A stretch of 64,000 bases of DNA from Tubulanus polymorphus (Eukaryota > Animalia > Nemertea): NCBI RefSeq assembly GCF_964204645.1, contig NC_134032.1:6374275-6438274 (forward strand), written 5' to 3'. The notes beneath the pieces were generated by a model. It worked only from the letters and a program-made list of their open reading frames with translations. It had not been told where the DNA came from and did not search any database. The position numbers and the translations under genes are program-made. Position 1 is the stretch's first letter; the number at the start of each line of letters is the position of its first letter. Shown in pieces: positions 15,001-42,404 of the stretch.

Positions 15001-16423
15001 TCGATTACAACAAAAATTAGACGGATATCTTAAGAGACAATGAAATGCCAGGCAAATTACTCGTCAGTCAAATTGGCTGACGAAGATTGCATACAAAAAT
15101 GTCCTTCCCATTCCTGAAAGTGGTTTGTGAAAATATCCGATCATGAAACTAAACCACAGTCACAGACAGGTTACTGACTCAGGCCTACTGTGTATGTACT
15201 GAGTTGATGACTCTTCTGTTAGTTAGGCTAATTATGACTTAGGCTAGAAGAGTCATCGACTGCTGTCTGTCCGGTCCACAAAAAAACTGAAATCAATTTT
15301 TTAATCCTTTTAAAATTGCTTTTTAGCATGTTTATTTTTTTGCGCATTTTTTGTTTTATTTGATTCAGATTAAGTCGTGTCGTGACACTCTGACAGTACC
15401 GTGCGAACTCAAAACGGTCTCATCGCCTAGTACACATCCAGAAAATAAGTTACCCGAACTCGAACATACCTATTTAGTGCCTACTTACATCGAATTAAGC
15501 GTCGTTTATTCCGAATTTAATCCGTACTCTGCAGCCTACTCCGCGATCGATCAGCTGTGGGCAGGTGAGTGAGTAGTGGAGTGAATTCAACAAACGGGCG
15601 TTTCATGAAGAGTTTGTGACCACTGTTTTAGAATCACCGCAAAACGCAAACTTCTCCAATTCAATTCAAACATTATTGAGCATCAATTTTGATTGAGAAG
15701 TGAAAATCTAAATTGCTATAGGCCTAATCGTAATCATCAGCCTTTTTCCACAATACAATTCTTTGCGTTTTTTGCTTCTTTTTTGCCTCTCACCCTTTGT
15801 ATATTCTTGTTATTTTTCTTTCATGAACTTGGACTTATGTTTGAGGCGACGGCCCGTCTTGCGTAGCTTCGTTAATTATGCGCCATGCGTGACCAGGTGC
15901 GTGGATGCAAACGCGATAGTGGGCAGTTGCCAGTTGGTACGATTTGGTTGGGTAGGCCCGCATAGATTCTATTTGCGTTTTGTACTAATTAGTACGCAAT
16001 GGTCGTAGTTTGGATATTAAATTTCATCTGAAAATGTTGCTGTTCAGCATTTTCCAACATAGTAGAACGATCCTATTAATTATGATGGTGCGCGAAGAAG
16101 GCGGGCTCCTCCATTCCTTTGATGTGGTAAAACGTTTGTGTAGTCAGTTCATTTGGGAAGTCATGGCAACTCATACTCATCTGTACCTTTAGCCTATTTG
16201 GTAAATTTTTGGGGGTCAGCTAATGCGCCAATTGGACTTGACAACGTAGCAAAAGGCTTGTGCCACAAGTGCTACTTTTTGTAGTCCCAAGTTTTATAAC
16301 ATTTTAATACAGTTTATATTAATCATATTTTATTTTATGATATCGTACAGTATAAAGTCCTTTATTAAGCCCGGCGGTGCACACGTGTACAATTTTTGCC
16401 GAGTAACGAGACGAGTTACTATA

Positions 16424-16739
16424 AGTAATAGGGATAATAGGCTTTCAGGTTAAAGGTTGAACGGGCGGGTGAGTAAAAAATGAAAAACATAAAAATAATA
16501 ACAATAGCGAAACTCATAAAAATGAAAAATAAATTCTCACACGCTCGAATTTATTTTTCATTTTTATGAGTTTCACTCCTAATTCAAGTAGAAATTGTTA
16601 TTATTTTCATGTTTTTCATTTTTTACTCACCCGCCCGTTCAACCTTTAACCTGAAAGCCTATTATCCCTATTACTCTTAAAATATTCATATAAATGAATA
16701 AAATATAAATCATTGAACTTCTAAAATCAATTTTAATAA
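16424..16739 (+). repeat. Left TIR; 16424-16675 is itself a near-perfect palindrome
   Basis: Reverse complement of 31908-32239. Internal foldback around loop TCACACGCTC. The outer arm has AGC where the inner arm implies 19 bp. Confidence 0.95.
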
Positions 16740-16761
16740 TTTAAAAAATTACTACTTAGTT

Positions 16762-16962
16762 ATGACTGAATTACAAAAATGGGTTGGATATGCTTCATTT
16801 CAATTAGGATCGGTTATGACATTAATTTCTACTGGCGTCATAACATTTTCGAACATCAAGCCTATGGAATGTAAATCAGGCAAGAACGAAACAGATGTAC
16901 TACAACCAAACGTCGAAACAGAAAATGAATCAGAACAAAAATTAACTAAGATAAATGAGTGA
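16762..16962 (+). CDS. Small hypothetical protein with N-terminal hydrophobic segment (element gene)
   Basis: 66-aa ORF starting just inside the left TIR and overlapping the next start by 8 bp. Hydrophobic stretch WVGYASFQLGSVMTLISTGVITF. Confidence 0.5.
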   Translation: MTELQKWVGYASFQLGSVMTLISTGVITFSNIKPMECKSGKNETDVLQPNVETENESEQKLTKINE

Positions 16963-17326
16963 TGGAGTTAAGAAAAAGGCTAGATCCGAGAAACAAATTA
17001 AATGGGCAAGAGAATTAGGAAAAAGATCTTCAGAATCAAAAAAAGCTAAGAAAATGAAATTAACTGATATAAATGAATCACAGACTTTATCTGATATTGA
17101 TTCAAATAATAATCCATCTAATTCTTCTAATGCTGGAAGTAATTATAAATTATATATTACAATTGGATTAGTAACAGTTATTATATTATCCGGTGTAATA
17201 TATAAATCAAAATTCAAATCTGATGATAAAGATGATTCCAATGATAATCGGAAACCTATCATACCAGAAAATAAGTCAAATCATAAAGTCATTGAAACTA
17301 AATCTAAATTATTATTAATGGATTAA
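16955..17326 (+). CDS. Hypothetical basic protein with one predicted transmembrane helix
   Basis: 123 aa, TAAATG start, Lys/Arg-rich N-terminus, TM segment LYITIGLVTVIILSGVIY. Confidence 0.75.
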   Translation: MSDGVKKKARSEKQIKWARELGKRSSESKKAKKMKLTDINESQTLSDIDSNNNPSNSSNAGSNYKLYITIGLVTVIILSGVIYKSKFKSDDKDDSNDNRKPIIPENKSNHKVIETKSKLLLMD

Positions 17327-17332
17327 AATAGA

Positions 17333-18445
17333 ATGAAAAAAGAACAATATTTAAGAGATTTATATTATAACCCAGAAAGTGAAGTATCATATTCTAACGT
17401 TTCAGAATTATGGAATAAAATTAAATCTGATAATGGCAATGGTGCCGTACGGCACCCACACGGTGACATAAAATATAGTGAATTAAAATCATGGTTACAA
17501 AATCAACCAACATATCAAATCCACAAGAAAATGGATAAAACTTATTTAACAAGAAAAGTTATGGTTTCATATATCGATCAACAATGGCAAGCAGATTTAA
17601 TTGACATGAAGAACTTAGAGGAATACAACAAAGGATATTTCTGGATACTGAATGTTATAGACATATTCAGTCGATACGCATGGTCAATTCCAATCAAAAA
17701 TAAAACTGGAATAGAAGTTACAAATGCTTTTAAATCTATATTTAAAGAAGCTATTCCAGATAAGATACAATTTGATGAAGGTAAGGAATTTTATAACAAA
17801 CATTTTAAAAAACTATTATCTGATAACGATGTAGATTATTTTTCAACACACTCAGATAAAAAAGCATCTATTATAGAAAGATTTAATAAAACATTGAAAA
17901 CTAGAATGTGGAAATATTTTACTGCTAATGAAACATATAAATATATCAATGTGTTAGATGATTTAGTGAAAGGTTATAATAATTCTAAACATAGTTCTAT
18001 GAATATGAAACCTATACAAGCTAGAAAAGAAGATAATTCAGAAATAGTTTGGAATAATTTATATGGCGCGTTTGTTGCACATGATTTCGGAGAACCTAAA
18101 TTCAAAATAGGACAACACGTAAGAATATCTAAATATAGAAAAACCTTTTATAAAGGTTATACCCCAAATTTTACAGAAGAAATATTCAAGATTAAAAAGA
18201 TAATATTAACTAAACCTTTTGTTTATAAATTAGAAGATTTAAAAGATGAAGAAATATTAGGTTATTTCTATGAACAAGAATTATCACTTGTACCAAATCC
18301 AGATGAAATAGAATACAAAATAGAAAAAGTATTGAAAACAAAAACTCTTAAAGGAAAAAAGTATTCTTTGGTGAAATATAAAGGATATGATGATAAATTT
18401 AATGAATGGATTTTATCTAGTAAAATTAAAAGAATAAATGAATAA
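17333..18445 (+). CDS. Retroviral-type (rve, DDE) integrase with C-terminal chromodomain
   Basis: Catalytic motifs WQADL, QFDEGKEF and IIERFNKTLK. Chromo-like YKIEKVL...LVKYKGYDDKFNEWI. Intact 370-aa ORF. Confidence 0.96.
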   Translation: MKKEQYLRDLYYNPESEVSYSNVSELWNKIKSDNGNGAVRHPHGDIKYSELKSWLQNQPTYQIHKKMDKTYLTRKVMVSYIDQQWQADLIDMKNLEEYNKGYFWILNVIDIFSRYAWSIPIKNKTGIEVTNAFKSIFKEAIPDKIQFDEGKEFYNKHFKKLLSDNDVDYFSTHSDKKASIIERFNKTLKTRMWKYFTANETYKYINVLDDLVKGYNNSKHSSMNMKPIQARKEDNSEIVWNNLYGAFVAHDFGEPKFKIGQHVRISKYRKTFYKGYTPNFTEEIFKIKKIILTKPFVYKLEDLKDEEILGYFYEQELSLVPNPDEIEYKIEKVLKTKTLKGKKYSLVKYKGYDDKFNEWILSSKIKRINE

Positions 18446-19050
18446 AGATTTATTTATATTTGAACCGCATAATATGTTAATAACTGGAGTAACCAATTGT
18501 GGTAAAACACATTTCATATTAGACTTGTTAGAAACTATTTATAAGAATCATTTTGATAATATAATATTATTCTGTCCTACTTATGAAATGAATAAAACAT
18601 ATAATAGAGATATAGTTAAGATGAAAAAGTTTATTATATTAAATCCTAAAACAGTAAAAGAAAATTTAGATAATTGTATTAAAATAGCAATTGATACTTA
18701 TAAAGGATCAAATACATTATTCATTATAGATGATTGCGCAAATTTACATGATTCAAAAGTTAGAGAAAGTGAGTTATGTTATCTAGCTTTCTCCGGGAGA
18801 CATTTTGGGATAACAACTTGGGTTTTAAAGCAAAAATATAATTCAATTGTTAAAGACTTTAGAGAAAACATTAGATTTCTAGTTTTATTTTATAACAAAA
18901 ATAAAAAAATCTATGCAACAATCATTGGAAGAAAATCAAATTATACCTACTGAATTACACGATGAATATATAAATAAATTAAAGAATAATAAAGGTTCAA
19001 AATTATTACTGAGACTACAATTTCCCTATGAATATAAATTTATAAAATAA
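18438..19050 (+). pseudogene. A32/FtsK-like genome packaging ATPase, frameshifted near the C-terminus
   Basis: Walker A GVTNCGKT, Walker B FIIDD, SGRH motif. After the A-run near 18903-18909 another frame continues KSMQQSLEEN...YKFIK* to 19050. Confidence 0.9.
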
Positions 19051-19074
19051 AATTTATAATTTGGAATATTATAG

Positions 19075-19467
19075 AAACTAATTTATATATCTATGTACTA
19101 GACGTACGAGTAAGAAAGTAAGATTCTTGCCAAGAAAGTAAGAAAGTAAGAATCTTGGTAAGAATTCTTACGTACGTCTAGTATATAGATATATAAATTA
19201 GTTTTATAATAATTATTCTAAATTTAAATTATAAAAATTATATGTTTTCTCTTAATAAAAATAAAAATAGATTATATTATAACTATTTCTATACTTAGAT
19301 TAATAATTTTATGTTTTTAATTTTTATGAAAACTAAATTATATATCTATGTACTAGACGTACGAGTAAGAAAGTAAGATTCTTGCCAAGAAAGTAAGATT
19401 TCTTGGATTCTTGGATTCTTACCAAGATTCTTACGTACGTCTAGTATAAAGTTATATAAATTAGTTT
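19075..19467. terminator. Two directly repeated ~130-bp palindromes between convergent gene blocks (candidate bidirectional 3'-end signal)
   Basis: Units 19075-19204 and 19330-19467, each with arms AAACTA...CTAGACGTACG / CGTACGTCTAG...TAGTTT. The structure is directly visible; the terminator role is inferred from position. Confidence 0.5.
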
Positions 19468-19475
19468 TATAATAA

Positions 19476-20646
19476 TTATTCTAATTTTGTTTCTAATATA
19501 TTTATAAAATCATCTCTGTTTATATCTAATTCACTAAAAGTCTTAGGTAGATTTATTAATTTTAATTGAGCCATCTTAACATAATTATTAGTAGGTATAT
19601 TAGCTTTTTCTCTTAATTTTTCTAAGTATTCATCAAAATCATCATAATCAAAATCAAAATGATATCCAAAATTAGTTATCAGATAATTTAAATCTATTTT
19701 TCTTAAATATAATAATTTATATATTTGTTTAGGATTATTTTCTGCATAGGCTAATAATTTATCAAATAACAACTTATAGAATATATAATATTGGTTAGTT
19801 TTAGGATTGAAATATTTGATATATTTCTCTGGGTTATTTAACAATGGTATCATACTCACCATTTTATAAACATTAATTAGATGTAACTTTGATTTATAAT
19901 GAGTATTTTCATCAACAGGTTCAATTTTCTTATTACAATATTGACACATTTTATTTCTTTCTATTTCTTCTAATTTCTTTTCATTTTCGATATGCGCTTG
20001 AGATTTTTTATGCTTAGAAAAATTACTTTTAGAAATATCTAAATTACAAATGTTACAATGTTTTTTAGAATCATCAATTGTTTCATTATCATTAGTTTCA
20101 ATTGTATCAACATTATCTGTTATATTCTCTATGGTATCATTTGTTTCAATTGTATTAACATTATCTGTTATATTATCTATAGTATCATTTGTTTTGAATT
20201 GTATTAACATTATCTATGATATTATCTATTATATTATTATCAGATATATTATTATCATTATTATTCTTTTCTTTTTCTATATGTTTATTTGATTTCTTAT
20301 GTGATGTCCAATTTTTATATGATATATATTTCTTACATACATCACAATATTTTTCATTTGTCTTTTTGGTTTTGATATCAGGTTCAATCTTATCATTATT
20401 AGATGTAGTAGGTATTACTGTAGTAGGTATTACTGTAGTAGGTATTACATTATTATCAATTACATTACTTAATTTATCAACAACTTCACTTTTATTATTA
20501 TCGATTTCTATTAGTTTAGTTTTATAAATTTTGAAAATAGGATCAAATATCAAAGCTATATTACAAGGTATTACATAATATAAACCATCATTATTTTCAT
20601 GTGTATCGATGTATGGAATATGTTTATATACTTTACCACCTTCCAT
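19476..20646 (-). pseudogene. Protein with three U1/matrin-type C2H2 zinc fingers and internal repeats, split by a frameshift near 20190-20210
   Basis: ORFs 20185-20646 and 19476-20210 overlap. Fingers CDVC..HKKSNKH, CNIC..HKKSQAH and CQYC..HYKSKLH. VIPTT x3, and 48-bp repeats spanning the frameshift. Confidence 0.8.
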
Positions 20647-20678
20647 TTGATATAAGATTTTTTATTAAAGTTAAAATT

Positions 20679-21926
20679 TTAATACATAACACTATCTAAT
20701 TGTGAATTTACAATATTTAATTGCGCGTCAGATATAATATAAATGTGCATTTTAAAATTTTTGATTCCTTTATTTTTTGTCATGAATAATTGTATTCCAT
20801 CTTTAGTGTTCTGTAGTTTTTTTCCAGAACCATGTAATGAATTATCCTCTGTTGTTCTAAAATCTAACCATAATGCATATTTATTACCGGTATAATAATC
20901 AATTTGATTAATGTTACAATTTTCAAATGATTTTACTTTTTCATTCATAAAATGTTTTCTAATTTCTGGCCATTGATCAATCATTCTCATTCCTTGACAA
21001 AATATTTTATTTGCTATTCCTTCGATAGTTATTTCTACTTTTGTTATTTCAGGATTATAATAATTATCAACATTTATTGCGCCATTAGTATATGTTGCAA
21101 TGGTAAAAAATATTAATATGCCTTTAATAGATCTTCTTGGGAAGTTAATATTCTCATTAATTATTTCATCATTTGCATTAATAGTTACGGTTTTAAATTT
21201 ATCAATATAATCATATAATAATGAAAATCCTTGATTGTATTTAGTTTGAATTATACTTGAAATATTTTCATCAGTTACTGTGTCATATTCTAAACATATA
21301 TTTGATAATTTATAACTCATATCTTTAACAACGCTAGATAATACAATTTCATTTACAGGAGCAAAAGTTATCTCAAATATAACGTCTTCTTGAATTGCGT
21401 ATTTATATAAAGGTGCATTATTATTTATCAATTCAAAGTTTAATGGAATTTTATATTTGCTTCCATATATACTGTTTATCAATTTATCTACAGCATTAGT
21501 TAATATTGCGCTATTAGCTTCTGATCTTAATTTATTTTGGTTTTCTGATTGGATTCCTTGAAATATCATATTATTTCTATTTTCTTTAGTTAACCATAAA
21601 TCTTTATAATGCATAAATAAATTATAATCATCCAATGAGAAAACTGTTTCTGGACCAATCTTTATTGTTAACTTTTTAATCAAATATCTTCCAACATTAT
21701 CAACAACATAATTATTATTATTACCGATTACTTTTATATCGGCCGATAAATAAATACTATTTGGAACATAAAAAGTATTTTTTGTTAATCTAGGAATTCT
21801 AACATATAAAGTTTCATCGGGATTAATATTTGAAGGGTTATGAGTAATTATACGATGTGATCTTTCTGCTTTAATAGCATTAGATATTCTATGATTCTTA
21901 GAAGGATTGATATAACTCCCACTCAT
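20679..21926 (-). CDS. Major capsid protein (double jelly-roll, hexon-like), intact
   Basis: 415 aa. Pattern THNPS.I....L.VRIP, NVGRYLIKKL, YKDLW, YKIPL, ICLEYD matches my recollection of invertebrate Polinton capsids. Size and position fit. Confidence 0.8.
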   Translation of the reverse strand: MSGSYINPSKNHRISNAIKAERSHRIITHNPSNINPDETLYVRIPRLTKNTFYVPNSIYLSADIKVIGNNNNYVVDNVGRYLIKKLTIKIGPETVFSLDDYNLFMHYKDLWLTKENRNNMIFQGIQSENQNKLRSEANSAILTNAVDKLINSIYGSKYKIPLNFELINNNAPLYKYAIQEDVIFEITFAPVNEIVLSSVVKDMSYKLSNICLEYDTVTDENISSIIQTKYNQGFSLLYDYIDKFKTVTINANDEIINENINFPRRSIKGILIFFTIATYTNGAINVDNYYNPEITKVEITIEGIANKIFCQGMRMIDQWPEIRKHFMNEKVKSFENCNINQIDYYTGNKYALWLDFRTTEDNSLHGSGKKLQNTKDGIQLFMTKNKGIKNFKMHIYIISDAQLNIVNSQLDSVMY

Positions 21927-21945
21927 TTATTTAACAAAAAATTAA

Positions 21946-23386
21946 TTATTTATTTTTTGATATCATGTTTACTAATCCAAAAATAATAGCACTTACAACA
22001 GTTATTAAAAATAAAATAATATGTTCAGCAGCAAAGTTAATAATGTTTCCTGCAGATTTCAATATAAAACCAACAATTGAAGTAATAACTCCAGGTAAAG
22101 CTGCAGCAGATTTTTTAGATAGTTCCCATAAATATTTTGCTAATTTCTTTAAACCATCTTTAACTTTATCTTGTATAGAATGATCACCTGGGGGTTTATC
22201 TGGTTTATTGGGAGTGGGAGTAGGAGTAGATTTTAAAGCATTTGATATAGCTAAACCAATTGTTGTGAATAACATAGTTACAGCTGTTAGAATTGAAAGA
22301 ACTGTTATTCCTTCTAATTTAAATAATAACTTTATTCTATCTTTCAATGATATTTTAGAATCTGGTTTTATCAACAAATCTTTAAAAATAACTTTTAATC
22401 TATTAATATTATAATCATATGATTTTAATAATAATTTAATTTCTTCTTTTTGTAATTCTATGTTATATTCTAAATCATCAATTTCTTTTTCTAAATATGC
22501 ATTTCTTTTTTTAAATTCAATTTCTTCAATAACTTTATTATCTCTATCTAATTTTAATTGTTCTATTTCTTTATTTTTATCAGTTAATTCTTTTTCTAAA
22601 GTTCTAATTTTAAAATCTCTTATACTTTTATCATGCGCAATTTTATCAGATGCATTTCTTATACTAATAATTTCTCTAATTGCTTTATCAGAAAATATAT
22701 CTAAATCTTCTAATTCTTGATCTGTTGCATCAAGTAATCCATTCGGTAAAAGTTTTTCAATTGGAACTTTATTTGATTTAAGTTTACTATTTTTGGAAGT
22801 TTTATTCTGTTCAGAAGTTGTTTCTGTTTCTGATTTCTTTTTGATTATTTCAAATAATTCATTAATTCTTTGTTTAAATACTTCTCTATTTTTATTCATT
22901 TCTGTTTGTGTTAAATCTTCTACTATATAATTAATATTACTTATTCTCTTAATTCTATCTGGATCTAATTTTCTCAAAGTTAATTTTGTTATTATTTTTT
23001 TTTTTATAAGTGATATCAATATAATAATCACCTTTCAAACGATAATAACATTTACCATTATCTAAAAATTTTAATTGATCTGCTAAAGGTCCAACGTCTT
23101 CATCATTTATGTTAAGTTTAGAATTTTCAATTAAATCTTCTAATTTAGCTATTTCGTTTAAATTATCTAAATCTTGTTTTACTAAATATGGGTCTAAATT
23201 TTCAGGATATAATTTTGATTCTGCATTTTTAATATAATCATGCATATTTAAATTATTATTATATTCTGGCTCATTACCGTCATTATCAATATTAGTTTCT
23301 GCATCATTATAATCATCATCAATATATCCTTCATTATTAATTCCCATGCCTTCCATTTCATAATCTTCTCCACCTTCTACATCCAT
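21946..23386 (-). pseudogene. Acidic/coiled-coil protein with C-terminal membrane helices, split by a frameshift in an 11-nt homopolymer (22995-23005)
   Basis: ORFs 22955-23386 and 21946-23031 overlap at the homopolymer. Coiled-coil-like region followed by three hydrophobic segments and a PTPTP linker. Confidence 0.8.
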
Positions 23387-23402
23387 TTACATAATAAAAA
23401 AA

Positions 23403-24842
23403 TTAAAATTTAAAATATAATATTCCTCCGATTACAATTCCTATACAAGTTATAGCTAATTTAGTATTTTCATGGGATTTATTATCATCATTTAGTTTAA
23501 TTATATCATGTTGAATAATATCAGTTTTAATATCACCGTGTGGGTGCCGTAAGGCACCATTTTCTGTAGTATTATAATCTTTTATTTTAGAATCATTATT
23601 TAATTTAATATTCTTAGTTTTAGTTTCAGTTGATTGAATGTGTTTTTTATTTTTTTCACCTTCCATTAATTTTGGAGCAGTAATAATCTTTTTATTTATA
23701 TCATTCAATCCAAAAGAATTATTTATTGTTGCAGTTTTAATTAGATTATTATAACCAATTATGTTTCCCATCTTTAATACTAAATCATTAGAAATAATTA
23801 ATAGATTAGGGCCTATACAATAATTAAGCCTTACATGAGATTTATCTAGATAATTTTGATATCTTATAATGTTTTCTGGAGTCGATCTATTTTTATCATT
23901 ATGAATTGAATCTTCAAATAAAACTTTAAATTGTTTCTGTGTATCAAATGATGTATTCAAATTTCCAATTATTGGTGATCTTGTTTCAACTTGCGCACCT
24001 AAAATACATATCAAATAAGTTCTAATAGATTGATTTATTCTTTGTATACCTGATTTAGTAAAACCTTCACTATTTTCTAAAATAAAATAAACCCAACCAT
24101 TATTGTTTTCTTGTTTTAAATTATCATAAAATTTCGGTAATTTATTGAAATTTAATGTTTCTAAATCCTTAGTTTCTATTTTACCATAACCTAATTTATT
24201 ATTATAAATATTATAAAAGCTATTGTAAATATTATAAAATCTATTAAAAGATGGTATGGGAAGTGCGCAATATGCTGCAACATTTTCAGGGCAAGGAAGT
24301 GATCTTATTGTTCCAATTTTTGTTCTAAAATCAGAATTATTTATATCTATATTAAATTCATTGCAAATTTTATAAAACTTTGATAAATTAATATTATTAT
24401 CTAATTCTTTAAAATATCTTGATCCTGGTAAAGCGCACTCTAATTCATTTAATATTATTCTGATTTGAAAGTATGTATGAAATCTAAATAAACTTTGAAT
24501 TAGTTTATATTTAGAATTATTCAAATGATCATTCCAACTTATTCCACATCCTGTTGTTGCACAATAAACAGCAAAATTTAATTGGTTCTGCCAATACTTC
24601 ATATTAGATTTTAATAACCATTGTTTTTCATCTTTCAATTTTTTAAAATTAATTAAATATACATGAAATATATTTTCCATCTTTGCATTAAAATTATTAG
24701 TTTCAGTAACATAAATTTCTAAATTAGTTAATGAATCTAAAACTTCATTTCTATATGTAATATCTTTATTAAAATCTATTGCTGGAATATTATATTTAAT
24801 TGATTTATTATATTGGAAAGCTTTTGAAAAACTATCTACCAT
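23403..24842 (-). CDS. Hypothetical element protein with C-terminal membrane anchor
   Basis: Intact 479-aa ORF with motifs WQNQLNFAVYCATTGCG, FRFHTYFQIR and SIRTYLICILGAQ. Ends LAITCIGIVIGGILYFKF. Confidence 0.85.
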   Translation of the reverse strand: MVDSFSKAFQYNKSIKYNIPAIDFNKDITYRNEVLDSLTNLEIYVTETNNFNAKMENIFHVYLINFKKLKDEKQWLLKSNMKYWQNQLNFAVYCATTGCGISWNDHLNNSKYKLIQSLFRFHTYFQIRIILNELECALPGSRYFKELDNNINLSKFYKICNEFNIDINNSDFRTKIGTIRSLPCPENVAAYCALPIPSFNRFYNIYNSFYNIYNNKLGYGKIETKDLETLNFNKLPKFYDNLKQENNNGWVYFILENSEGFTKSGIQRINQSIRTYLICILGAQVETRSPIIGNLNTSFDTQKQFKVLFEDSIHNDKNRSTPENIIRYQNYLDKSHVRLNYCIGPNLLIISNDLVLKMGNIIGYNNLIKTATINNSFGLNDINKKIITAPKLMEGEKNKKHIQSTETKTKNIKLNNDSKIKDYNTTENGALRHPHGDIKTDIIQHDIIKLNDDNKSHENTKLAITCIGIVIGGILYFKF

Positions 24843-24887
24843 TTATTCAATAAAAAAATTAATAATTTATTAATTCTTTTAATAATT

Positions 24888-25286
24888 TATCTTGTTCTAT
24901 GACCATTTAAACTTATGATATAATCTAGTGTGTTCTTTAATTTATTAATTTCTTTTATATTAGTTTTAATTTTTTCTTTATTACTTTTTATATTTAATTT
25001 TGAACTTATACCGGTTAAAACACTTGAACTTAATCCTAACACACCAATTGATATAGCTAAAGGTGTTAATGGGCTGAATATCTTTGTTAATATAATCCAT
25101 ATAGTTTTGCCTCTTTTCTCTATATTCTTCTGCAGCTTTATTATATTTCTTTAACGCTAAGTTATGTCTTCTTTGTTCTCCTAATGAACTATTTTTATCA
25201 ATATGTTTAAATAAATATCCACCACCAGTAAATGCTAAAGCGTTAACAATTGCCGATCCTATAATAGTTATAATTGCAGAAGCCAT
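24888..25286 (-). pseudogene. Probable deletion fusion of two small membrane-protein genes
   Basis: N-terminal part MASAIITIIGSAIVNALAFTGGGYLF...EQRRHNLAL runs to ~25085. A different frame then gives IFSPLTPLAISIGVLGLSSSVLTGISSKL...LDYIISLNG. Confidence 0.6.
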
Positions 25287-25310
25287 TTATTTAGTAAAAA
25301 AATTATGCAT

Positions 25311-25532
25311 TTATATGGGAGGAATATATTTTTGTTTTTCCAAATAATCAATAGTTAAATTAGATAAAGTAACTGCTAATGTTAATTTTAAAATATCATT
25401 CATATCAAATCTATCAACATTAACACTTCCCATTTTGAATACTTTTTTTAATACCATTGAATAACCAACAGTTCCAACTGATAGTAATGCGCCATTATAT
25501 AATCCAGTTATTATCCACTTATTATCACTCAT
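25311..25532 (-). CDS. Small hydrophobic protein, putative virion/membrane component
   Basis: 73 aa, two hydrophobic helices, carries the shared upstream motif. Confidence 0.75.
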   Translation of the reverse strand: MSDNKWIITGLYNGALLSVGTVGYSMVLKKVFKMGSVNVDRFDMNDILKLTLAVTLSNLTIDYLEKQKYIPPI

Positions 25533-25874
25533 TTATTTATCAAAAAAATTACTATCATCAAAATATTTAGTTATCTTAGTGATGATTAATTCGACATTTA
25601 TTTCATTACTACTTTTATGATTATCATATATTTTGGATAATATGTTTTTGATACCTTCAATAATTCCATCTTCATTTAATTCATAATATTCTAAAGGTGA
25701 TTTAATTAAATCAATTACTTTTTCTATATTATAATTTTCTTTATCAATCATTGATGCATTGTTAAATGATTTACTTTTTATATCAGTAATTACATCATTT
25801 AGTTTAATTCTCATTTCTTTACCATGTTTAAAATCAAACCCAAAACATATACTCGGTCCAACAGTTATATTCAT
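25533..25874 (-). CDS. Hypothetical protein
   Basis: 113 aa. Its stop abuts the next start (TAAATG), and it carries the shared upstream motif. Confidence 0.7.
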   Translation of the reverse strand: MNITVGPSICFGFDFKHGKEMRIKLNDVITDIKSKSFNNASMIDKENYNIEKVIDLIKSPLEYYELNEDGIIEGIKNILSKIYDNHKSSNEINVELIITKITKYFDDSNFFDK

Positions 25875-25891
25875 TTATATAGTGAAAAAAA

Positions 25892-26400
25892 TTACTCTCT
25901 ACATCTTACAACTAATTCATAAATTACGGGGAAATTATTTAAATCAATTAAGTATCCATTATGATTTCTAATTTCTAATCTAAAATTATTAAAACGAGGA
26001 ATGCATGGTTTGAAATCACATTCTGTTAAATTATAATTTATTTGCGTTCCAAATTCTTTAACATTACCTTTTACTCTAATTCTTTAATTCTTTAACTACT
26101 ACCTAATTTGTGCCAGGCTTTTCTATTAATTTCTTGTGCTAATGTATCTAAATTATATAACCCCGGTTTTAAGTATATATAGACCCATTCATTTTTATTT
26201 TTATTAAAAACTAAAAAGGCTCTATGTTCAATAGTTTTATTCGATATATTGTAAAAAGAATTACATAAACTTATATTTACTAATTTTAAATCAACACAAT
26301 TCTTAAATTCTCTATCTAATTGTACTAATAAATTATGTGATTTATAATTTGTAAGTTTTCTAGAATCTACAAATATTCTGTATTCTTTTAATTCTACCAT
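25892..26400 (-). pseudogene. Minor capsid protein (penton-like single jelly-roll) with internal lesion near 26085-26100
   Basis: N-terminus IFVDS...NSFYNIS...LKPGLYN..LAQEIN. In another frame, C-terminus FRLEIRNHNGYLIDLNNFPVIYELVV..* ends at 25892. Both ends look like penton termini, but only ~165 codons remain. Confidence 0.65.
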
Positions 26401-26405
26401 TTATT

Positions 26406-26768
26406 TTACATATTTAATTCGAAATCTATTTCATGGTGCCCTTTTTCATTCTTACCTTTGTATACGAAATAGAAATCTCCAGAACATAATTCTTCTAAAT
26501 CTTCACTTGATAATCTATGAAATCTATCCGGTAAATATGTTCTGAATTGATATGTATTTCCTTTTAATCCTTCATATTTAAAGTGTATAACTAATTTATC
26601 TCCATAGTTATTAGTAACTGTAACAATATTTGTAATTAGATATTTCTTATGGATTATTAATTCTGTTAACTTTTTGAATTTATAATCTACAGATTTTACA
26701 TTTGTGATATCTTTAATTCTATCTAGAAATAATTTGTTGTTCTCACTGTGCGCTTGTTTACTCTCCAT
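26406..26768 (-). CDS. Small protein next to pPolB, possibly an OB-fold ssDNA-binding protein
   Basis: 120-aa intact ORF. Beta-strand pattern FKKLTEL..KYLI..YGDKLVI..YLPDRF..FVYKG. The function is inference only. Confidence 0.55.
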   Translation of the reverse strand: MESKQAHSENNKLFLDRIKDITNVKSVDYKFKKLTELIIHKKYLITNIVTVTNNYGDKLVIHFKYEGLKGNTYQFRTYLPDRFHRLSSEDLEELCSGDFYFVYKGKNEKGHHEIDFELNM

Positions 26769-26797
26769 TTTAATAACATATTTTTATCAAAATTTGA

Positions 26798-29700
26798 TTA
26801 ACACGTTAGAATTCTTTTCATTATCTCGTTCTCTTTTGTTTCTTCTCTTTTAAATCTTAAGTATTCATCTAAATTACAACCATAAGCAACTGTATGAATT
26901 CCATCATCTAAAATATATCTTTTATCATCAAATGGGTTTAGACTTACCTTTTCAATTTCTTCAACATATTGTTCATGATCTTCAGATCTTAAACTTCTCA
27001 TCTTATGTTTTCTAACTTCTTCATTGAATATACAATTGATGTAATCTTTGAAATGAATATTCTTTTCTACTACACTTTTGGTTATTCCTTTTAACTTTTT
27101 AGCTTCATGTTCTTTAGTTTTATATGAATACATTTTAGATCTAATACCAATGAATTCAATCATTTCTTCACCACCTAATTCATCTTTGAATTTACCAGGA
27201 ACTTTTTTATTATCATTGCTAAACAATTCATGATTTTTAGGATAGTTACTAAAATCAAAATGATGTTTTAATGTTTTTAAATCATCTGTTATGTTATCAG
27301 TTTTTATCTTTAATATGTAAGAATCTGTATTTTTTATGATTAATGGAAATCCACAATTAAATGTACCATCTTCAGTTGTTAAATCATAAACACATTCTGT
27401 AGGATTGGATATTTCTAATAAATCAGTAGCTTCTTCAGTTAGTTCATTTTCTACATGCGTTAATTGAAATACATTTAGTTTATCTTTTCTAATATTAACT
27501 AACATATTAAATCCTAATGAATTGCATAATATATTTAATCCTGATATAGCAACTTTTCCTTTTTGTGTCAAAGATATAGTTTTATGTTTTGTATAGTTTT
27601 TTGAACCATCTGCAGCATAAAATCCAATGAAGAACCATTTTCTTAAATCATATTTTGCATTTAATACATAATCTGGAACTATCTTTTCTTTTGTTGAAGT
27701 ATTACGTTTCACTATTGCATGAATATAGAATTCATCATTATATTTAATTGCAAAATCTTTAGTATTATTTACATGTATTCTATAAACTGCTGATGATTTC
27801 ATAACATCCATGATTCTAAATGTTTTATGTGAATAAACTTCTTCACAGTATTTCTTAATTCTTTCTAATAATTTCAAATCTTGATTGCATAAATACCAAC
27901 AATATTTAGTTCCACTAACATATTTATACACACCTGCTGAACCATCTCCCATAAAAAATCCTTTGATAAAATATTCTTTTTCTTCCAATGTTTCGGGTTC
28001 TATATTATAAATATTATCAATTATTTTATCAAATGACATATGATTCATTCTTGGGTAAAATCTGTTGTGTAATAATTCATCTCCAATTTTTATATCAGTT
28101 GGTTTTATTTCATCACCATTTTGTTTAATTAAACTATGATCTTCAGTAACATCAACAAATCCTAATTTAGTTCTAACTCTATAGATTTTCTTATTCGTTT
28201 TATGTCTAATTATATTCTTTAATTTCGCCCATCCATTTTTTGTCCAAACATCCATTAATCCATTTATTTGTATTAATTCTTTTTCACCATACGAAATATA
28301 AAGTTCATTTTGTTTTGGAATTATTTCTGAAATTCTTCTAATTAACATTTGATTATTATATTTTAAAAATATTGGGGTGTCAGCTGTTACAGAATCAAAA
28401 TATGATATTTCTATATGTTTTTCTCCAAAAAGTGGTTGTAATACATTATAATAGAATTCATACATTAGTAATTTTGATAATTCTAAAACTGAAGCGCCAA
28501 CATAGATTGGTTTATTAAATTTATTGATGTTCTTCTCATCTTAACTGCAGCTAAATTTTCATCAAATATTCTGTTACCAATGAACTTAGGATATGATTAT
28601 AAATGCCTTATCCTTTTACCATTACTGACTAACTCAATATCATTTCTATTTCTAATATTTTCACAAGTCTTACCATAGAATGCATTATTCATTAACTTGA
28701 AGAAATCTTTCTCGAAATCAGTTTTAGCTTTAGTTCTCTGTTTGGTGTTAAAATCTATATATTTTTCTAACCACTTAGATTGACTAAATGAAATATATCT
28801 ATGTACTTTTTTTAGAATCATTCCTTGATTCAAATAAAACTTTAACATTCTATAATGTACTACATAATTATATTTATCTTCTTGAGTTACCATTAACTTT
28901 TCTGTATGAATATGATTTTCAGGTTTAATTCTTTTTTGATAACTTGATAATTCTTCATGAGTTACAGTTTTATGTTCGGGGCAGTAAGCTAGATTTCTAG
29001 ATTTAAATTTAATATGTTCAGGATATTCTAAATCTACAACAAAGAAGTAACCAGTATCTGAATCATCTGCAATATCTAGAATTCTTTTCTTCCAATCAAA
29101 TTTATCATCATTTTCATTCTGTAAAACTTCACTTATTTCAAATACTCCATAAGGTTGTGGTTCCATCATTGCCCAACCATACAAATTATTTGCATCTATA
29201 TATAATAACTTATATCCGGGGTTATCATTTACATTGAAATATCTATCACCTAATACACCTGAAACTCCTCCTCTTATAGATTTTTCAAATAATAATAATT
29301 GATCTATATTTGTTAACAAATCCATTTTTATATCTGTAAATTTCAATCAACAATCCCATGTTAATCCTGGTGATGAATAACAATGACAAGGATCAATATT
29401 AAAATATTTTAGGTTTACATCTCTAAACCTTTCGAATATATCGGTTAATAATAATACATCTGATTTTAGATATAAATCTACTAATTGCCCATGATTTTCT
29501 ATTTTGAAATGATTCCAAATATTCAATGTTCTATTATAGACTTCATCTTTAACATATTCGTTTTTTAATTCATCATAGAATTGTTCTTTCAATAATTCAG
29601 TTATTTTAAAATCATTATGATTTTTATAGAAAGAATATGGAATTGCGCCTTTATATCTCATTAATTTAAAATCATCAATATTTGGGTAATATTCTTTTAA

Positions 29701-31891
29701 TATCTTTAATTCATCATCAACTAATGATTTTGATAAGTTATCTAATGAACGATTTAAAAATCTATATGAATCTATAAATCTTAAACACCCAAATTGGAAT
29801 GATATATAATTCTCAGATGTTTTAGCTAACATTCTAAATTTATAAGTTGGTATTTTATCTTTTGATCTATTTGAATTTAATATTTCTATTTCATTATTGA
29901 TTTCTTCTATTTTATAGCATAACTGTTTGATGAATAAATGTGCATCATATCCTGATAGATTATGAAATATAACTGCTACAAAATTAATTTTCTTAGCTTG
30001 TAAGTTACAATTCTCATGTGCAGCGCCTCTAAACTTTCCATTCAAATGATCATGGTCTCTTACTTTTTTATCTTTATAATTAAATATCTTTTCACAATAA
30101 TAACATTTACCTGCAAACGCAAATTCTTCTTTATCTTCTTCTGTCATAATTATTTCTTTATTTGTATTCAATAATTTACTAAATCTTATTTCATATTCAA
30201 TTAATAAGTCACAAAAATGATTGATAACATTTTCATTTCTATAATTATAATATTCACTTTCAATTAGTTCTGGATAATCAGATTTAATATATGACCCGAA
30301 AGCCGCAGCTGATTGATGAATCTTTTTAATAGTATTTGTTTTTGGTGGTTCATCTGAAAAATCATTTTCATTAGAATTTAATTTCTTTCTTTTATAATAT
30401 ATTTCTTTTCTATCTTGATCAGTTAATTCTTTATTTAATGATTCAAAATCTCCATATATTACAAATGGTACTTTATTTTTGTAATCATATTTTTTGAATT
30501 CTAATATTTTATCTTTTTCATTTGGTAAATCTAATTTACAATAATCATGATTTTCACATAATTGTTTATGATTTAATAACGTACTTTCATTACTGAATCT
30601 ATGTAAACATTTTCTACATAGATATATCTTATTATGGTGATCACTTTCTGTTCTAAAAAATAAATCTATTTGTTTAATCCACATATAATGATTCTCATAA
30701 TATAATATATCTATAACATCGTTTGAATCATAATCTTTTGATAGATATAAAGGTTCTAATGTATAATGTTTTATATTGTTACCTTTTGTATTTGGTAATT
30801 TGATTAAATCAAATACATTTATTTTTATATTATTATCTCTTTCTATTTTTGGGATGTTTTTAATTATAACAGGATACTTATCTATCTTATAATTATTTTC
30901 AAATAGTTTATAATTTGTTAATCTATAAGTATGTTTATTATAATCTTCAACTGAGTGTAAGCAACTTATTATAGCCCATAGAAAACATTTATCATCTTCA
31001 TTTTGTACATTTATTACAGCATTAGTTTTAAATGGTAGTTTAATATAACTTGTTCCATTTATACTATCATCTTTATAATAAGATAAATTATTTTCATCAA
31101 TTGGTATCGATTTAGTTAACTTATTATTTTTTGTGTTATAAACATGTAAAGTCATAAATATTATCTCATCAAATATTAAACCAGATCCTTCAAAATATTT
31201 CTCTTCTATTTTAGTTTTTACTTCATTATAACATTTATCTAATTTATCATCTATATGTTGTTTAGATATAATATGTTGTGAATGAGAATGGTTTATCTTC
31301 AGATTTTATAAACTTTACTTTAACTGATATACTAATTTTAGGATATTCAACATCAGTAATTATTTTTATAATATTTTTCATATTTTCTAAATGTTTTTTA
31401 TTTTCTTCTAATGTTTTTCCTTTATGAAATTTAAACTCGATAGCTGCTGGACCAATATCACTTTTAAATGCTTTGGTTATCTCTATATCTTTTTTATTAT
31501 CTAATGAATTAATATATTTTCTTACATCTTCCATGTATGATCTTTTATTGTTTAATTTATTTTTTATGCTTTTAATTGTCTTCTGTTTCTTATCATTATC
31601 TTTATCAAAATAATCTTCACCTAAAATATCATTATTCTTATTTCTAATATGACTTATAGATTTTAAATGTTCTTTATAATATCTTTTATCACTGAATGAT
31701 TGATTACATGTATCACATTTGTATGTTTCTTTTTCATTCTTTAATTCATCTAATTTAGATTCTAATTTATCATCTTTATTTTCTAGTTTCAATTTATTCT
31801 CTAAATGTGTTTTAGTTTTATTGTGTCTTGCTTTTTGGGATTTATCTATATTGATTTTACATGTTGGACAGTAGTACTTATTTGCTTCCAT
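26798..31891 (-). pseudogene. Protein-primed family B DNA polymerase (pPolB) polyprotein with intein; 2 premature stops and 2 frameshifts
   Basis: Exo motifs YGDFES, FHNLSGYD and YLKSD. Pol motifs YIDANNLYG, KLMNNAFYGK, YFD|TDS and KLKGI. Lesions: frameshift ~31265-31290, TGA 29347-29349, TAA 28597-28599, frameshift ~28521. Confidence 0.95.
27329..28393 (-). mobile_element. Intein with LAGLIDADG homing endonuclease (355 aa) inserted in pPolB motif C
   Basis: Block A SVTADTP, block B DVTEDH, LAGLIDADG blocks IKGFFMGDG and FIGFYAADG, block F VYDLTTEDG, terminal KN then +1 Thr. Removing it restores YFDTDS. Confidence 0.95.
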
Positions 31892-31907
31892 TTTAATACT
31901 AAATTTT

Positions 31908-32239
31908 TTATTAAAATTGATTTTAGAAGTTCAATGATTTATATTTTATTCATATATATGATTATTTTAAGAGTAATAGGGGTAATGGGCTTTCAAGCTA
32001 AAGGTTGAACGGGCGGGTGAGTAAAAAATGAATAACATGAAAATAATAACAATTTCTACTTGAATTAGGAGTGAAACTCATAAAAATGAAAAATAAATTC
32101 GAGCGTGCGAGAATTTATTTTTCATTTTTATGAGTTTCACTCCTAATTCAAGTAGAAATTGTTATTATTTTTATGTTTTTCATTTTTTACGAGCTCGACC
32201 GTTCGACCTTTGGCCTGAAAGCCTATTATCCCTATTACT
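31908..32239 (-). repeat. Right TIR; 31972-32239 is itself a near-perfect palindrome
   Basis: Reverse complement of the left TIR. Foldback around loop GAGCGTGCGA (32101-32110). Confidence 0.95.
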
Positions 32240-32448
32240 ACTATAGGTTTTTATTTGACGTACCTTACGAGCTTTCGCTTCTAATATAGATACTTCATCA
32301 GGTGAATAGTGCATGAGACTCATTCACCTGATTGAGTGAATGAGACTCATTCACCTGATGAACGAGCTTCTATACATTAGAAGCGAAAGCTCGTGCGTCA
32401 AATAAATAGTTAACCTATAGGCCTATAGTACTACCCGTCTCGTTACTC
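32240..32448. repeat. Larger part of a palindromic MITE-like element interrupted by the Polinton (left stub 16401-16423)
   Basis: GAGTAACGAGACG (16401) is the reverse complement of CGTCTCGTTACTC (ends 32448). Inner arms TATTTGACG..ACGAGCTTTCGCTTCTAAT / ATTAGAAGCGAAAGCTCGT..CGTCAAATA. Confidence 0.8.
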
Positions 32449-37581: not shown

Positions 37582-37698
37582 CTAGCAGCAGCCTTTTGAA
37601 GTGGATTTTTTCTGCGCGGCTCGCGGTTCCCCGAGTATGATGCGGTCTTTGTCGCGTTCTTCTTGGTCTACGTTGATCGTACGGTCATTTTGAAGGAT
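37582..37698 (-). CDS. RAB32: Rab32/38 last coding exon with CC prenylation motif
   Basis: TTTCAG acceptor, then ILQNDRTIN...KKSTSKGCC*. Confidence 0.9.
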   Translation of the reverse strand: MLQNDRTINVDQEERDKDRIILGEPRAAQKKSTSKGCC

Positions 37699-38873
37699 CT
37701 GAAATAATGCGGAGAATGAAATTAATTTCATGAGCAATTTTGCTCCAACTCTGAGCAGTGCCTTTGGTAACAAATTGAATTTTTTCCTGCTGCAGACGTT
37801 TCTAGAAGTGACTGTCTATTAATTGAAGAAAAAACATTAAGTGTGAAGAAGCCAATTTTGCAACGCATGTGAACGCACACTCTGATTTGGTCCATTCCAA
37901 ATATGGCCCATGCCAGGTACGGACCCTTTAGACCGGCCTAACATGTGGTATTGTGAAGGCAGCCTTTAGACTCAATTCTATGATTTATTTTCAAAAACTA
38001 GTAAAAATACCCATCTTCGATGTTTTTGAAAATTATGCGCGGCTCATTAACTGTCAGCCTAATAAATTCTGATTGACCTTTCCAATTAAAATGCAAGCAA
38101 TTTTTCCTCCCTCCCCTCAAATAATCCCTTTCTCGACATGCCCCTCAAGCAACATTTCCTCCCAGATCCTGGAGAGAATGTCTAACCCTTTCTCGACATG
38201 CCCCTCTAAGATTAGATCCTTACTAATGCCTTACAATAAATATTTGTCTAGAAACATGTTCACCCTGTAGTGAGAGTGGTTGGTTTGCAGTGCTCTGTAT
38301 AGGGATACAAATGGCTCAGCAAAATTCGGGTCAAATTGGGTCAAACAACACATCACTGCAGTAACAGATAACACAGTACAGGCGCAAGCACACGCAATCT
38401 ACTGCCAACTTCTGGAATCTACTGGGATTTTGGGGATGAAAATTCAAAATTGAAATGAGACGCTGGATCCAAATAAAATTGTTATCTTTACCATAAGAAA
38501 CCATTCCTCTGTGCACATGCCAAGTTTCATTTTCGAACAACAAATAGATTTCGCGCAAACTGGTAACGAAAAACGACAGTTCCCCCTTCATAGTATAGTA
38601 GATAAGAGTAGTGACCTTGAGACTCAATTCTATAAGTTATTTCCAAAACCTAAGCAGCGTTTAGACTCAATTCTATTGGCCATTTTCAAAACTAAGTGAG
38701 TAGTGACTCTAAGAATCAATTCTATGAGCCAGTTTCAAAAAACTAAGAGAGTTCTGACCTAAGTCGAAACGTCACTATTCTCTTTTCTGTAGGAGCCATG
38801 TTCAGAAGTCCCCTACAAATGGGACCTAAACCCTAAACTCACTCGCATGAACAAATCCAGGAGGAAAACTTAC

Positions 38874-39017
38874 TTTAGTGACTAGACTTCGTGCCGACTC
38901 ATCGATATTTATATTCTCTTTTGCGGACGTTTCGAACCAATCGAGGAAACCTTTTTCTTTACAATAATCATCCATGTGTTGTGCATTGTTCACTAGACCT
39001 TCTTTAGCTTGATCACA
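38874..39017 (-). CDS. RAB32: Rab32/38 exon
   Basis: CDQAKEG...WFETSAKENINIDESARSLVTK, completing NKCD and including ETSAK. CAG/GTAAG boundaries. Confidence 0.95.
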
Positions 39018-40895
39018 CTGCAGGAAAAAAAGGTATGCACGCAATTCAGGGATGATAACAGGCCATCATTAAAAAGGCGGACAATTTTTAATATCGTAAT
39101 AACTTAGAGATAACGAAGGCGTGAAGCTACTGGCAGCAGAAGATGCCAGCTACGAGCGCGCAATGCGCGAAATAATACCCGGGGGTCTGGTCCCTCCCCC
39201 AGAAAATTTTGATTTTTCACATTGTCTCAGATTGTTTTTCAGCAGTTTTCACATTGACATGTCACTCAGAAAAATCAAACAACATGTTTTACCGTCATTA
39301 CATCGCTACTTCAAAGACGATATTCATTTGCATAAGAAAACAATGTAGACGGCGCCACGTTACGGGCCACAAAAGCCATTTTTCAGCACTACGCAACACT
39401 CAGTGAAAAATCAATAATGTAGATATATACATCCACAGAGACATGATCGGCCAAGAGATAGATAAAACTAATTGCTGATGTGGCATTATGCTGCAGTTTA
39501 GAACTGTTATTGGACTTTAAGGGATGAAAACACTATGAAAAGCAGTAGTAACATATATCGAAGTTGGCGGAACTACGTCACAGCCGAGAGAAAAGCGTCT
39601 GCTACGTGGAGAAAATGGCTGCGGCCAGGCAGTCTACAAAACCCTCTTTTTTGGATTAAGTATTAGATAAAATGTTTTTCTGCTGTTTTGAAAATGTGTT
39701 TACATGTATAAAGGTTTCTAACACATCTAGATACAACAATTCACTGCAGTTCCCCTTTAAGATGCTGGTAAACCAATCATACTCACCCCCCCCCTAATTT
39801 TTCCAAAATGGATTTGCATTGATCTGAGAAATGATAAAAATTGACTGGAAAGGGGGAAATCCGTCGAGCGGAAAATTATCATCCCTGATAATTATTGAGT
39901 TTCGTAGAGTTGAAAAATCCAGCTCCGGTGCCAGTTGCAGTGAGATGGCTTCAGTTTGAGTCCCTTTTTAAAATTCAAATTCTAAGGATTCTGCTGTTAT
40001 TTAGTTGTTATTTTGCTACTAAGTAACGTATTGTTTTATAACTTGAACATGGATCCACCACCAGAATTCTGCAAAAATCATCAAACTATATAAGAAATTT
40101 TAAAAAATCTAGTCCTTAATTGTATTTTCATCACAATTTTTAACAATGAGAAAAAAAAATATTTTTCTTGTTATGCTCGTCATGATTTTCAATCTAGTAA
40201 CATGTAAAATTTACTTGTAAAATTTGTTCATATTGATTTTGAATCTCATAATTTGCAATTAAGTTTGTATTCTTCATATCTCACATCATTTGATCAATCA
40301 ATCAATCAATTTTCACTCCTAATTTTTCATTCTACAGTCCTTCCGAGGTTTTATACGGAAAATACTAAAAAAATATGGAAATCTTATTTTTTCCTATTCC
40401 ATCCCATTTTGAAACACCTATTATAAAAAAAAATATTTTTTTTGCCCTCCCATTTTTTCTTGAAATAATCTGTTCTCCATATGAAAAAAAAACCTTAGCA
40501 TATTTCTAAGTTTTGGAGTACTTTCTCCAGGAATCAAGGAGTAGTATGAGCCCTGAATGGTAACATGTGACATGTCTGATAAGGATTTCTCATAAACGGG
40601 ATAAATTTTGCTGGTTTTACCATTAATATATTTTAATACCTTAACTGACAAACCTGCAGGTACTTCAAAATTCTGTGGGTTTTCTTCATTTTTTATGGGT
40701 GATTCGTTCGCAAGTAAACATACCATCATTTCATTAACATTTTAGCAGTGACTGGTGATTTTTCAGAAAATTTGTTCTTGGAATTGACTTTCCAGAACTA
40801 TGCTTATGCAGGGTGAACTGCAATTTTTCCAAAATTATCATTTTAAAGTTTTTTCTATTTCCCGACCCAATTTAGGTTTCCACCATTAAACTTAC

Positions 40896-41077
40896 TTTAT
40901 TTGCGAGTAACACGCACGGAACTGGACTACCATCTGGAAGCTGTACTTTGCTGTCAAGGTCGTTCTTCCACTTCTGAACGGCCTCGAACGTCGACGCTCG
41001 AGTAACGTCGAACACAATGAATGCGCCAACTGCTTCTTTATAGTAAACACGCGTCATATTGCCGAAACGCTCCTGGC
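40896..41077 (-). CDS. RAB32: Rab32/38 exon
   Basis: QERFGNMTRVYYKEAVGAFIVFDVTR...CVLLANK. Phase matches the previous exon; GTAAG donor. Confidence 0.95.
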
Positions 41078-41114
41078 CTGTAAAAAAAGAAAAAACAGCG
41101 TTCCATGAAGCAGG

Positions 41115-41945: not shown

Positions 41946-42404
41946 AAGTTTACCATGAAGTTTTCTTATGCTAATGGGCCCCTGGGGGATACAAATGTAT
42001 ACGAAAGATCAAGGATCAAAGCGTCTTGAAAATTTCCCTCCAAAACTTGGCGAACCTCAATAGTTGCCAGTCGACCATCTTGATTCCGACAGAGCCAGTT
42101 TTTGGGTTGAAGATGTGTCTAAGGTACATGTGAATTCAGTTAACGGACGGAGGACGGACGAAAAGTGAACTCAATAGCCAGCTGGGACTAAAGTCCAAAG
42201 TGGGCTAGAAAACAAGACACATCTGTGTTCCTATTACTTATACATTCCTGATCTGAAACTTTGAAGTGGCTACAATGGTGCTGAAGATCAGAAAGAGATA
42301 TGCCACAGATCCAGGGGCAAGCCCTGAGAAAATGTTCATTACAGTAATCATTGCTTTAAAAGCAATGAAAAGGTGATTCAAGCAGTGACCCATTTCTGAA
42401 ACAA

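Follow-up and report, generated by a model that had tools for sequence, protein, structure and literature searches.

An apparently undescribed, old intein family of Polinton DNA polymerases in an animal nuclear genome

The window, a 64,000-nucleotide stretch of the Tubulanus polymorphus genome, contains an integrated Polinton whose DNA polymerase gene is interrupted at its catalytic motif by an intein. Filled and empty alleles of the insertion site exist side by side in reads bearing the species name, and the related inteins of protein-primed polymerases form one clade. Taken together, the sequences suggest an old Polinton intein family that likely had a single giant-virus-type origin, is predicted to be self-splicing, and likely persists by converting intein-free sister elements (we put the probability at roughly 0.78). 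This family, present here in an animal nuclear genome, is apparently undescribed.

The element and its recognizable parts outside the polymerase are as follows.

16424..32239, no strand: whole Polinton, 15,816 bp, with AG...CT ends
16418..16423, no strand: target-site duplication, left copy, 6 bp
32240..32245, no strand: target-site duplication, right copy, 6 bp, identical to the left
16424..16739, no strand: left terminal inverted repeat (TIR) with a long internal palindrome (repeats I1 96%, I5, I6 90%)
31908..32239, no strand: right TIR with a long internal palindrome (repeats I1, I2, I6)
17333..18445, plus strand: retroviral-type integrase with a chromodomain (Pfam rve, Chromo)
18438..18953, plus strand: A32-like packaging ATPase (Pfam Pox_A32, E 1.8e-12)
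20679..21926, minus strand: likely (candidate) double jelly-roll major capsid protein, a language-model lead only

Size, TIRs, target duplication, integrase and ATPase are all those of a Polinton/Maverick, for which 13-25 kb, TIRs and a 5-8 bp target duplication have been given as the definition (PMC10748475); this agrees with the sequence-only reading, which had named a Polinton as the host of the intein. The G+C content of the element is about 22-25%, against 35-39% in its flanks. The capsid candidate has feature scores of 0.97-0.98 to viral clusters, some of which are Preplasmiviricota or have capsid Pfams in 10-24% of their members, and its recognition score lies below the tool's threshold. 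No adenain maturation protease was found, either as a Pfam match among element ORFs of at least 100 aa or as a motif in six frames; the same scan detected adenain in contigs L192 and L193. Because of this the element is not classed as a complete adintovirus (Starrett 2021). ORF 23403-24842 had no match in Atlas, and an Rfam search gave no match. Read depth drops to 5-25% of the element level at 18956-20660 and 22568-23231, suggesting that these accessory regions differ among copies. By eye, the insertion site of the Polinton appears to lie within a short repeat element whose ends are inverted (16390-16423 and 32240-32450).

The flank of the element carries a recognizable animal gene.

37585..54239, minus strand: host Rab32/38 gene, five coding exons; the Polinton lies about 5.3 kb downstream

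One 48-residue exon of this gene is 100% identical to NCBI records of Tubulanus polymorphus, a palaeonemertean (Nemertea), and the next matches reach at most 87%. The placement in an animal genome is thereby upheld. Contamination or mis-assembly would leave the element outside the animal chromosome; the sharp G+C contrast with the flanks and the lack of a read set seen spanning both junctions speak for it, but it is improbable in the extreme. The 6-bp target duplication is perfect, the neighboring intron-rich Rab gene is identical to a nemertean record, and a contig of X1 crosses the left junction without differences, from 15151 to 16453, about 30 bases into the element. At the right end, 1457 reads of X6 exit into unlike flanks, which points to many insertion sites. 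Elsewhere in the window, a low-complexity host exon (60602-63154, minus strand; 850 aa) has internal repeats and no Pfam match.

The polymerase and its intein are encoded on the minus strand.

26798..27328, minus strand: C-extein of the protein-primed PolB, beginning TDS
27329..28393, minus strand: intein of 355 aa, class-1 type (Ser1 ... Asn355, Thr+1), with a LAGLIDADG endonuclease, at the pol-c site
27329..27391, minus strand: C-terminal splicing blocks F and G (D337 and N355 in 20/20 Polinton-type inteins; penultimate Lys here)
27602..27625, minus strand: second LAGLIDADG motif (catalytic-position D262 in 20/20)
27938..27961, minus strand: first LAGLIDADG motif (catalytic-position D150 in 20/20)
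28136..28147, minus strand: block B TxxH (T83, H86; 20/20)
28394..31891, minus strand: N-extein, broken here, with N-terminal zinc fingers, exonuclease and polymerase motifs A and B
29998..30144, minus strand: Endonuclease VII/HNH insertion within the polymerase (PF02945, 23.8 bits, cut-off 23.6)

The intein reads as 355 stop-free residues between the polymerase residues YFD and TDS, with Ser first and Lys-Asn last. A stop-free 1065-bp insertion splitting YxDTDS had been claimed from the sequence, and the translation, the flanks and reads across exactly the empty site all bear this out. The pol-c assignment also holds under the allele definition in PMC549080, the insertion point lying between YxD and TD where homologous inteins sit. 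Matches above cut-off were obtained to Pfam LAGLIDADG_3 (E 2.5e-8) and to NCBIfam TIGR01445 (intein N-terminus); the match to Pfam Intein_splicing (E 9e-7) falls below that family's cut-off. An AlphaFold model (mean pLDDT 93.6, 63-row alignment) has the HINT fold, with the intein homing endonucleases TliVMA, PI-PkoII, PhoVMA and PI-PfuI as its best PDB fold matches, so that the HINT/LAGLIDADG match proposed as a check was found. The best named viral fold matches are giant-virus DNA polymerases at 21-30% identity.

The class-1 residues are all present (Ser1, the block B TxxH, the block F Asp, the terminal Asn and Thr+1). Ser1, T83, H86, D150, D262, D337 and Asn355 are each conserved in all 20 full Polinton-type inteins, and the splicing blocks and both LAGLIDADG blocks are as they had been described. 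The block-D lysine is found in 8 of the 20. The penultimate His, frequent though not invariable in class-1 inteins, is replaced by Lys, as the sequence-only reading had noticed; since the Lys-Asn terminus recurs in 72/201 inteins of the viral type and 5/20 of the Polinton type, it is not counted as disqualifying. The endonuclease region (44-63%) is as conserved as the splicing regions (39-70%), and the G+C and GC3 of the intein (0.247 and 0.12) equal those of the remaining polymerase. Differences between reads and window within the intein fall at third codon positions in 16 of 25 cases (p=0.002, over the best-supported rows listed, with 400 further rows beyond them), pointing to purifying selection during the spread of the element family. 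Such selection would mean that the polymerase was translated while the family spread. As a sequence the intein is confirmed and well supported; its splicing and cleavage are predicted.

The window polymerase is itself disrupted upstream of the intein, by two frameshifts, one near 31290 and one near 28522, and by a stop in frame at 29347, a breakage absent from the sequence-only reading. With three disruptions the window copy is probably dead, and its intein is probably a passenger in a dead element. The polymerase motifs of a protein-primed PolB are present in this broken gene, and there are relatives that carry PF03175, which the window polymerase does not match. The labels pPolB1 and pPolB2 are used here as judged from motifs and Pfam, with trees built without named references; by its HNH insertion and absent PF03175, the window polymerase appears to be of the pPolB2 class. 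The EndoVII/HNH insertion has been called unique to oomycete and nematode pPolB2, and a pPolB2 count of 0 is given for three nemertean genomes (Jeong 2023, PMC10748475). PF02945 also occurs in several relatives of the window polymerase. The four nearest polymerase relatives (73-88%) have an uninterrupted motif with no insertion.

Sister elements in the genome were studied through raw DNA reads or contigs of X1, X2 and X6. X6 has the same species label as X1 and comes from a separate study; about 12% of the run was examined. The name Tubulanus polymorphus covers two species (PMC8468679), and X6 may therefore differ from the window's own species. The marine metagenome run X5 contributed only a small share and is left out as evidence. 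In X6, 94 reads skip exactly 27329-28393, and 71+39 further reads have a net 1065-base skip with a few differing flanking letters, giving 204 empty-site reads; the same joint is found in X1 and X2 contigs. The exact skips independently confirm the limits of the intein, and the intein-less sister Polintons that had been proposed as a check do exist. More than half of the empty-site reads (110/204) have letters unlike those of the window copy no more than 8 bases from the insertion point (27320-27328); these sites may be target-escape alleles, or plain drift.

In X6 the eight extein bins have a mean depth of 725 and the six interior intein bins one of 234. The resulting ratio, 0.32, is rough because two low bins near the C-terminal end of the intein were omitted as locally diverged. 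Single-copy depth is about 8x by two flank bins, and a published genome size of 313-358 Mb (PMC8468679) would imply 5-6x; on these figures the Polinton family has about 90-130 copies, a number that free element DNA could inflate, with 28-43 copies, about a third, filled. The reads being short, an intact polymerase could not be phased in any intein-bearing copy.

Relatives were gathered by a word-based search (561 longer proteins, best 120 listed) and by HMMER (2132, best 150 listed). In a BLAST among 294 stored proteins, the top 18 after the intein itself all belong to protein-primed polymerases that carry this intein at the identical position, and inteins of RNA-primed PolBs begin at 43%. Polinton-type inteins are found in at least 13 other polymerase clusters (90% identity), at 41-76% to the window intein, the nearest at 64-76%. 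Identity between Polinton-type and viral-type inteins has a median of 36% and a maximum of 45% over 3985 pairs, and GVMAG contigs match the window intein at up to 43%; the label "viral-type" rests on Pfam and GVMAG contig matches, not on the taxonomy of each intein. The earlier description as a giant-virus-type intein thus stands as to the closest kin outside Polintons, but not as to the nearest relatives, which are other Polinton-type inteins. This suggests that the capture was old and shared and not a fresh jump into the worm lineage. Among the proteins gathered, none agrees with Mimivirus R322 in length and intein position as published, and none is labelled Mimivirus.

The intein is scattered among these polymerases. 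The nearest 120 exteins comprise 94 with an empty site, 5 filled, 3 otherwise changed and 18 without the site, and two other 90% clusters mix states (7 filled, 6 empty and 2 without site among 15 listed; 5, 1 and 9 among 15 listed). The P0003 cluster has 136 members, those listed being on contigs of 57 kb to 1 Mb that look like host chromosomes. For the eight pPolB2 carriers, intein and extein identities rise and fall together (r=0.98 over 28 non-independent pairs). The carrier P0007 is of the PF03175 class; its intein has 40-47% identity, and its extein has no BLAST match to other carriers. Among 190 intein loci from IMG/VR and JGI (33/64 parts scanned), none has a Polinton-type extein. Three Polinton-like IMG/VR contigs are matched by the extein; the site is empty in L191 and L193, whereas L192 lacks a match to the site pattern. 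The phage collection gave two weak matches only (26-28%) and the plasmid collection none.

Several further proteins in this set are unusual. The six empty members of the P0003 cluster have site residues unlike those of carriers, which may likewise reflect target escape or plain drift. The carrier P0002 has YGD before the intein, as in viral polymerases, and its nearest empty relative, P0301, has YLD; the YGD in P0002 is possibly a relic of co-conversion. Several large proteins among P0156-P0161 and P0009-P0011 match the intein family twice, and one of them, P0009, also has Pfam domains of type II topoisomerase; together this suggests moves of the family to other sites and genes. The Polinton-type polymerase P0302 is listed as belonging to a Sulfurimonas MAG, and the viral-type PolB inteins L194-L200 are under prokaryotic MAG names; these contigs are probably mis-binned.

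Intein tree 1 contains 12 Polinton-type inteins (8 near-duplicates of the 20 were dropped) and 103 of 201 others. Tree 2 contains the Polinton set, 36 viral-type rows and, as outgroup, 10 of 53 extracted archaeal pol-c inteins. The 12 Polinton-type inteins are monophyletic, with SH-aLRT 100 in tree 1 and in a further quick tree, and have support of 100/98 in the archaeal-rooted tree 2. Together with viral-type PolB inteins they make up a clade supported at 100/100, from which the 10 archaeal ones are separate. The clade, the co-divergence with the polymerases and the matching base composition suggest one old entry into Polintons and long residence, and so the distribution would reflect one such entry, patchy presence since, and one or more lateral moves from one polymerase class to the other. 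A fresh jump into this lineage is not supported, the nearest relatives being other Polinton-type inteins. In the suggested comparison of intein and extein, their identities co-vary among the pPolB2 carriers and P0007 crosses the polymerase class; no described Polinton intein clade was found in the literature searched.

The sequence-only reading had also proposed transfer from a giant-virus PolB to a Polinton. The kinship holds, viral-type PolB inteins being the next kin, but the direction is favoured and not established, as an arrangement with the Polinton inteins as the sister group of the entire viral-type set is not rejected by the AU test (p=0.397) and the viral-type clade has a polytomy at its base in the archaeal-rooted tree. 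A different direction, in which both descend as sisters from an older source or giant viruses acquired their inteins from Polinton-like viruses, is compatible with the other results, though we consider it unlikely. None of 200 bootstrap trees groups the viral-type inteins without the Polinton ones, and the viral-type inteins are far more numerous. They have YGD at the site in 193/201 cases, and YGD is also common in archaeal ones, whereas the sites of Polinton carriers are varied. The C-terminal GFPL motif, found in 20/20 Polinton inteins and 13/201 others, is common to one viral subgroup only; the join of the Polinton clade with this GFPL subclade has support of 96, 88 and no resolution in three trees. 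That the worm Polinton took up the intein recently and directly from a Mimivirus-like giant virus, the literal history first proposed, is very improbable: among named entries, giant-virus PolB inteins match best in fold and sequence, and GVMAG contigs reach 43%, but the Polinton-type relatives are closer (64-76%), no pair of Polinton-type and viral-type inteins exceeds 45%, and the base composition of the intein fully matches the element. The closer relatives and matched composition largely refute such a capture. Co-infection, which the sequence-only reading held to be needed for the transfer, is an inference.

Ancient entry into the polymerase class followed by vertical inheritance, repeated loss and loss of homing is a little less likely again than a different direction of transfer. 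The pairwise match of intein and extein identities fits this history, as does the equal G+C and GC3 of the intein and the rest of the polymerase, and 20 of 500 shuffles of the carrier labels on the extein tree needed as few changes as were observed. Many precise losses would be required, however: the 10 carriers among 104 rows of that tree need 8 changes, 7 of them forced by starred branches. The endonuclease region is conserved like the splicing regions, with both catalytic aspartates invariant, and both alleles coexist in three separate families, which also argues against it. P0007 would still demand a lateral move. A placement of its intein outside the pPolB2 inteins is not rejected by the AU test (p=0.498), a point against the preferred history. 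Intact endonuclease motifs, scattered distribution and coexisting alleles suggest homing instead, as part of the preferred history of an old family that converts empty sisters. A more specific version, in which Polinton homing inteins derive from a single giant-virus capture, passed between both polymerase classes, are actively homing among dozens of copies in animal genomes and leave escape-variant empty alleles, is held tentatively, at somewhat under even odds.

The chemistry of class-1 splicing is established, and the conserved residues predict that it operates here. An acyl shift at Ser1, aided by T83, H86 and D337, would be followed by transfer to Thr+1 and cyclisation of Asn355, rejoining YxDTDS. 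Since the intein interrupts the catalytic motif, the polymerase should function only after splicing. In homing, the endonuclease would cut motif C of a sister Polinton where that site is empty, and repair of the break would copy the 1065 bp. Co-replicating linear copies in one cell are the most likely setting, and chromosomal copies in the germ line a less likely one. Homing requires flanking homology, which would mostly confine the intein to one polymerase lineage and explain the co-divergence; it would have crossed at least once to the other Polinton polymerase class. The same splicing residues are given for the Mimivirus intein (PMC549080).

The intein resembles the Mimivirus R322-type pol-c (position III) inteins of Nucleocytoviricota PolB in its catalytic-motif site, length of about 350 aa and LAGLIDADG endonuclease (Ogata 2005, PMC549080), and shares with them the first Ser, last Asn, Thr+1 and TxxH block. 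Unlike theirs, its host polymerase is protein-primed and gives no BLAST match to their exteins over the region of motifs A-B, the site residues are not YGD, and the element is integrated and multi-copy in an animal nucleus. Archaeal pol-c inteins (Thermococcales, Methanocaldococcus and DPANN PolB) have the YxD|...|TD site in common with it, but match at 21-29% identity over long matches, are about 390 aa long and form a separate clade. The element is like Polintons/Mavericks with pPolB2 (Jeong 2023, PMC10748475; divergent PolB class, Starrett 2021, PMC8502044) in its TIRs, target duplication, integrase, ATPase, capsid candidate, HNH/EndoVII insertion in the polymerase and lack of a PF03175 match. 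It differs from these in carrying a true intein, the HNH/VSR insertions in the available accounts having no reported splicing domain, and in that no maturation protease was found in the window copy. Viral-type polymerase inteins of algae and protists and the Anaeramoeba inteins (Gallot-Lavallee 2023, PMC10710043) are likewise virus-borne and on nuclear scaffolds. The hosts described there are not animals, while here filled and empty alleles occur in dozens of animal copies.

No published intein of a Polinton polymerase was found in the literature, with subscription papers, bioRxiv supplements, Repbase and InBase outside the search. The available text of PMC10710043 does not mention Polintons, and the word "intein" is absent from the main texts of PMC10748475 and PMC8502044, as far as these were available. 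Inteins are also not mentioned in one supplementary file each of PMC10748475, PMC8502044 and PMC11161782, nor in the accessible parts of PMC11131425 and 10.64898/2026.10.13.758929. Four papers mention inteins in general terms only in the portions available (PMC12220804, PMC3671162, PMC5718144, PMC13768754). Endonuclease insertions in Polinton polymerases have been speculated to stem from intein invasions (Krupovic 2024, PMC11161782), and reviews describe inteins as absent from metazoan genomes (PMC5784728; PMC8529194). Since inteins are known in insect iridoviruses (PMC549080), their presence in an animal virus is no novelty; an intein in an integrated, multi-copy, protein-primed element appears to be one.

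The window thus holds a complete intein in an animal nuclear genome, though within a virus-like element and not a cellular gene, and a pol-c intein in a protein-primed polymerase, for which no report was found in the literature searched. It adds evidence, at the level of sequence, that genetic material has moved between polymerases of the giant-virus type and those of Polintons, and also between the two Polinton polymerase classes. With about one-third of the copies filled and two-thirds empty, the homing cycle of invasion, decay and escape becomes testable within one genome. Should the more specific version, with active homing, be true, a metazoan nucleus would harbor a naturally occurring selfish element that splices as a protein and is driven by its endonuclease.
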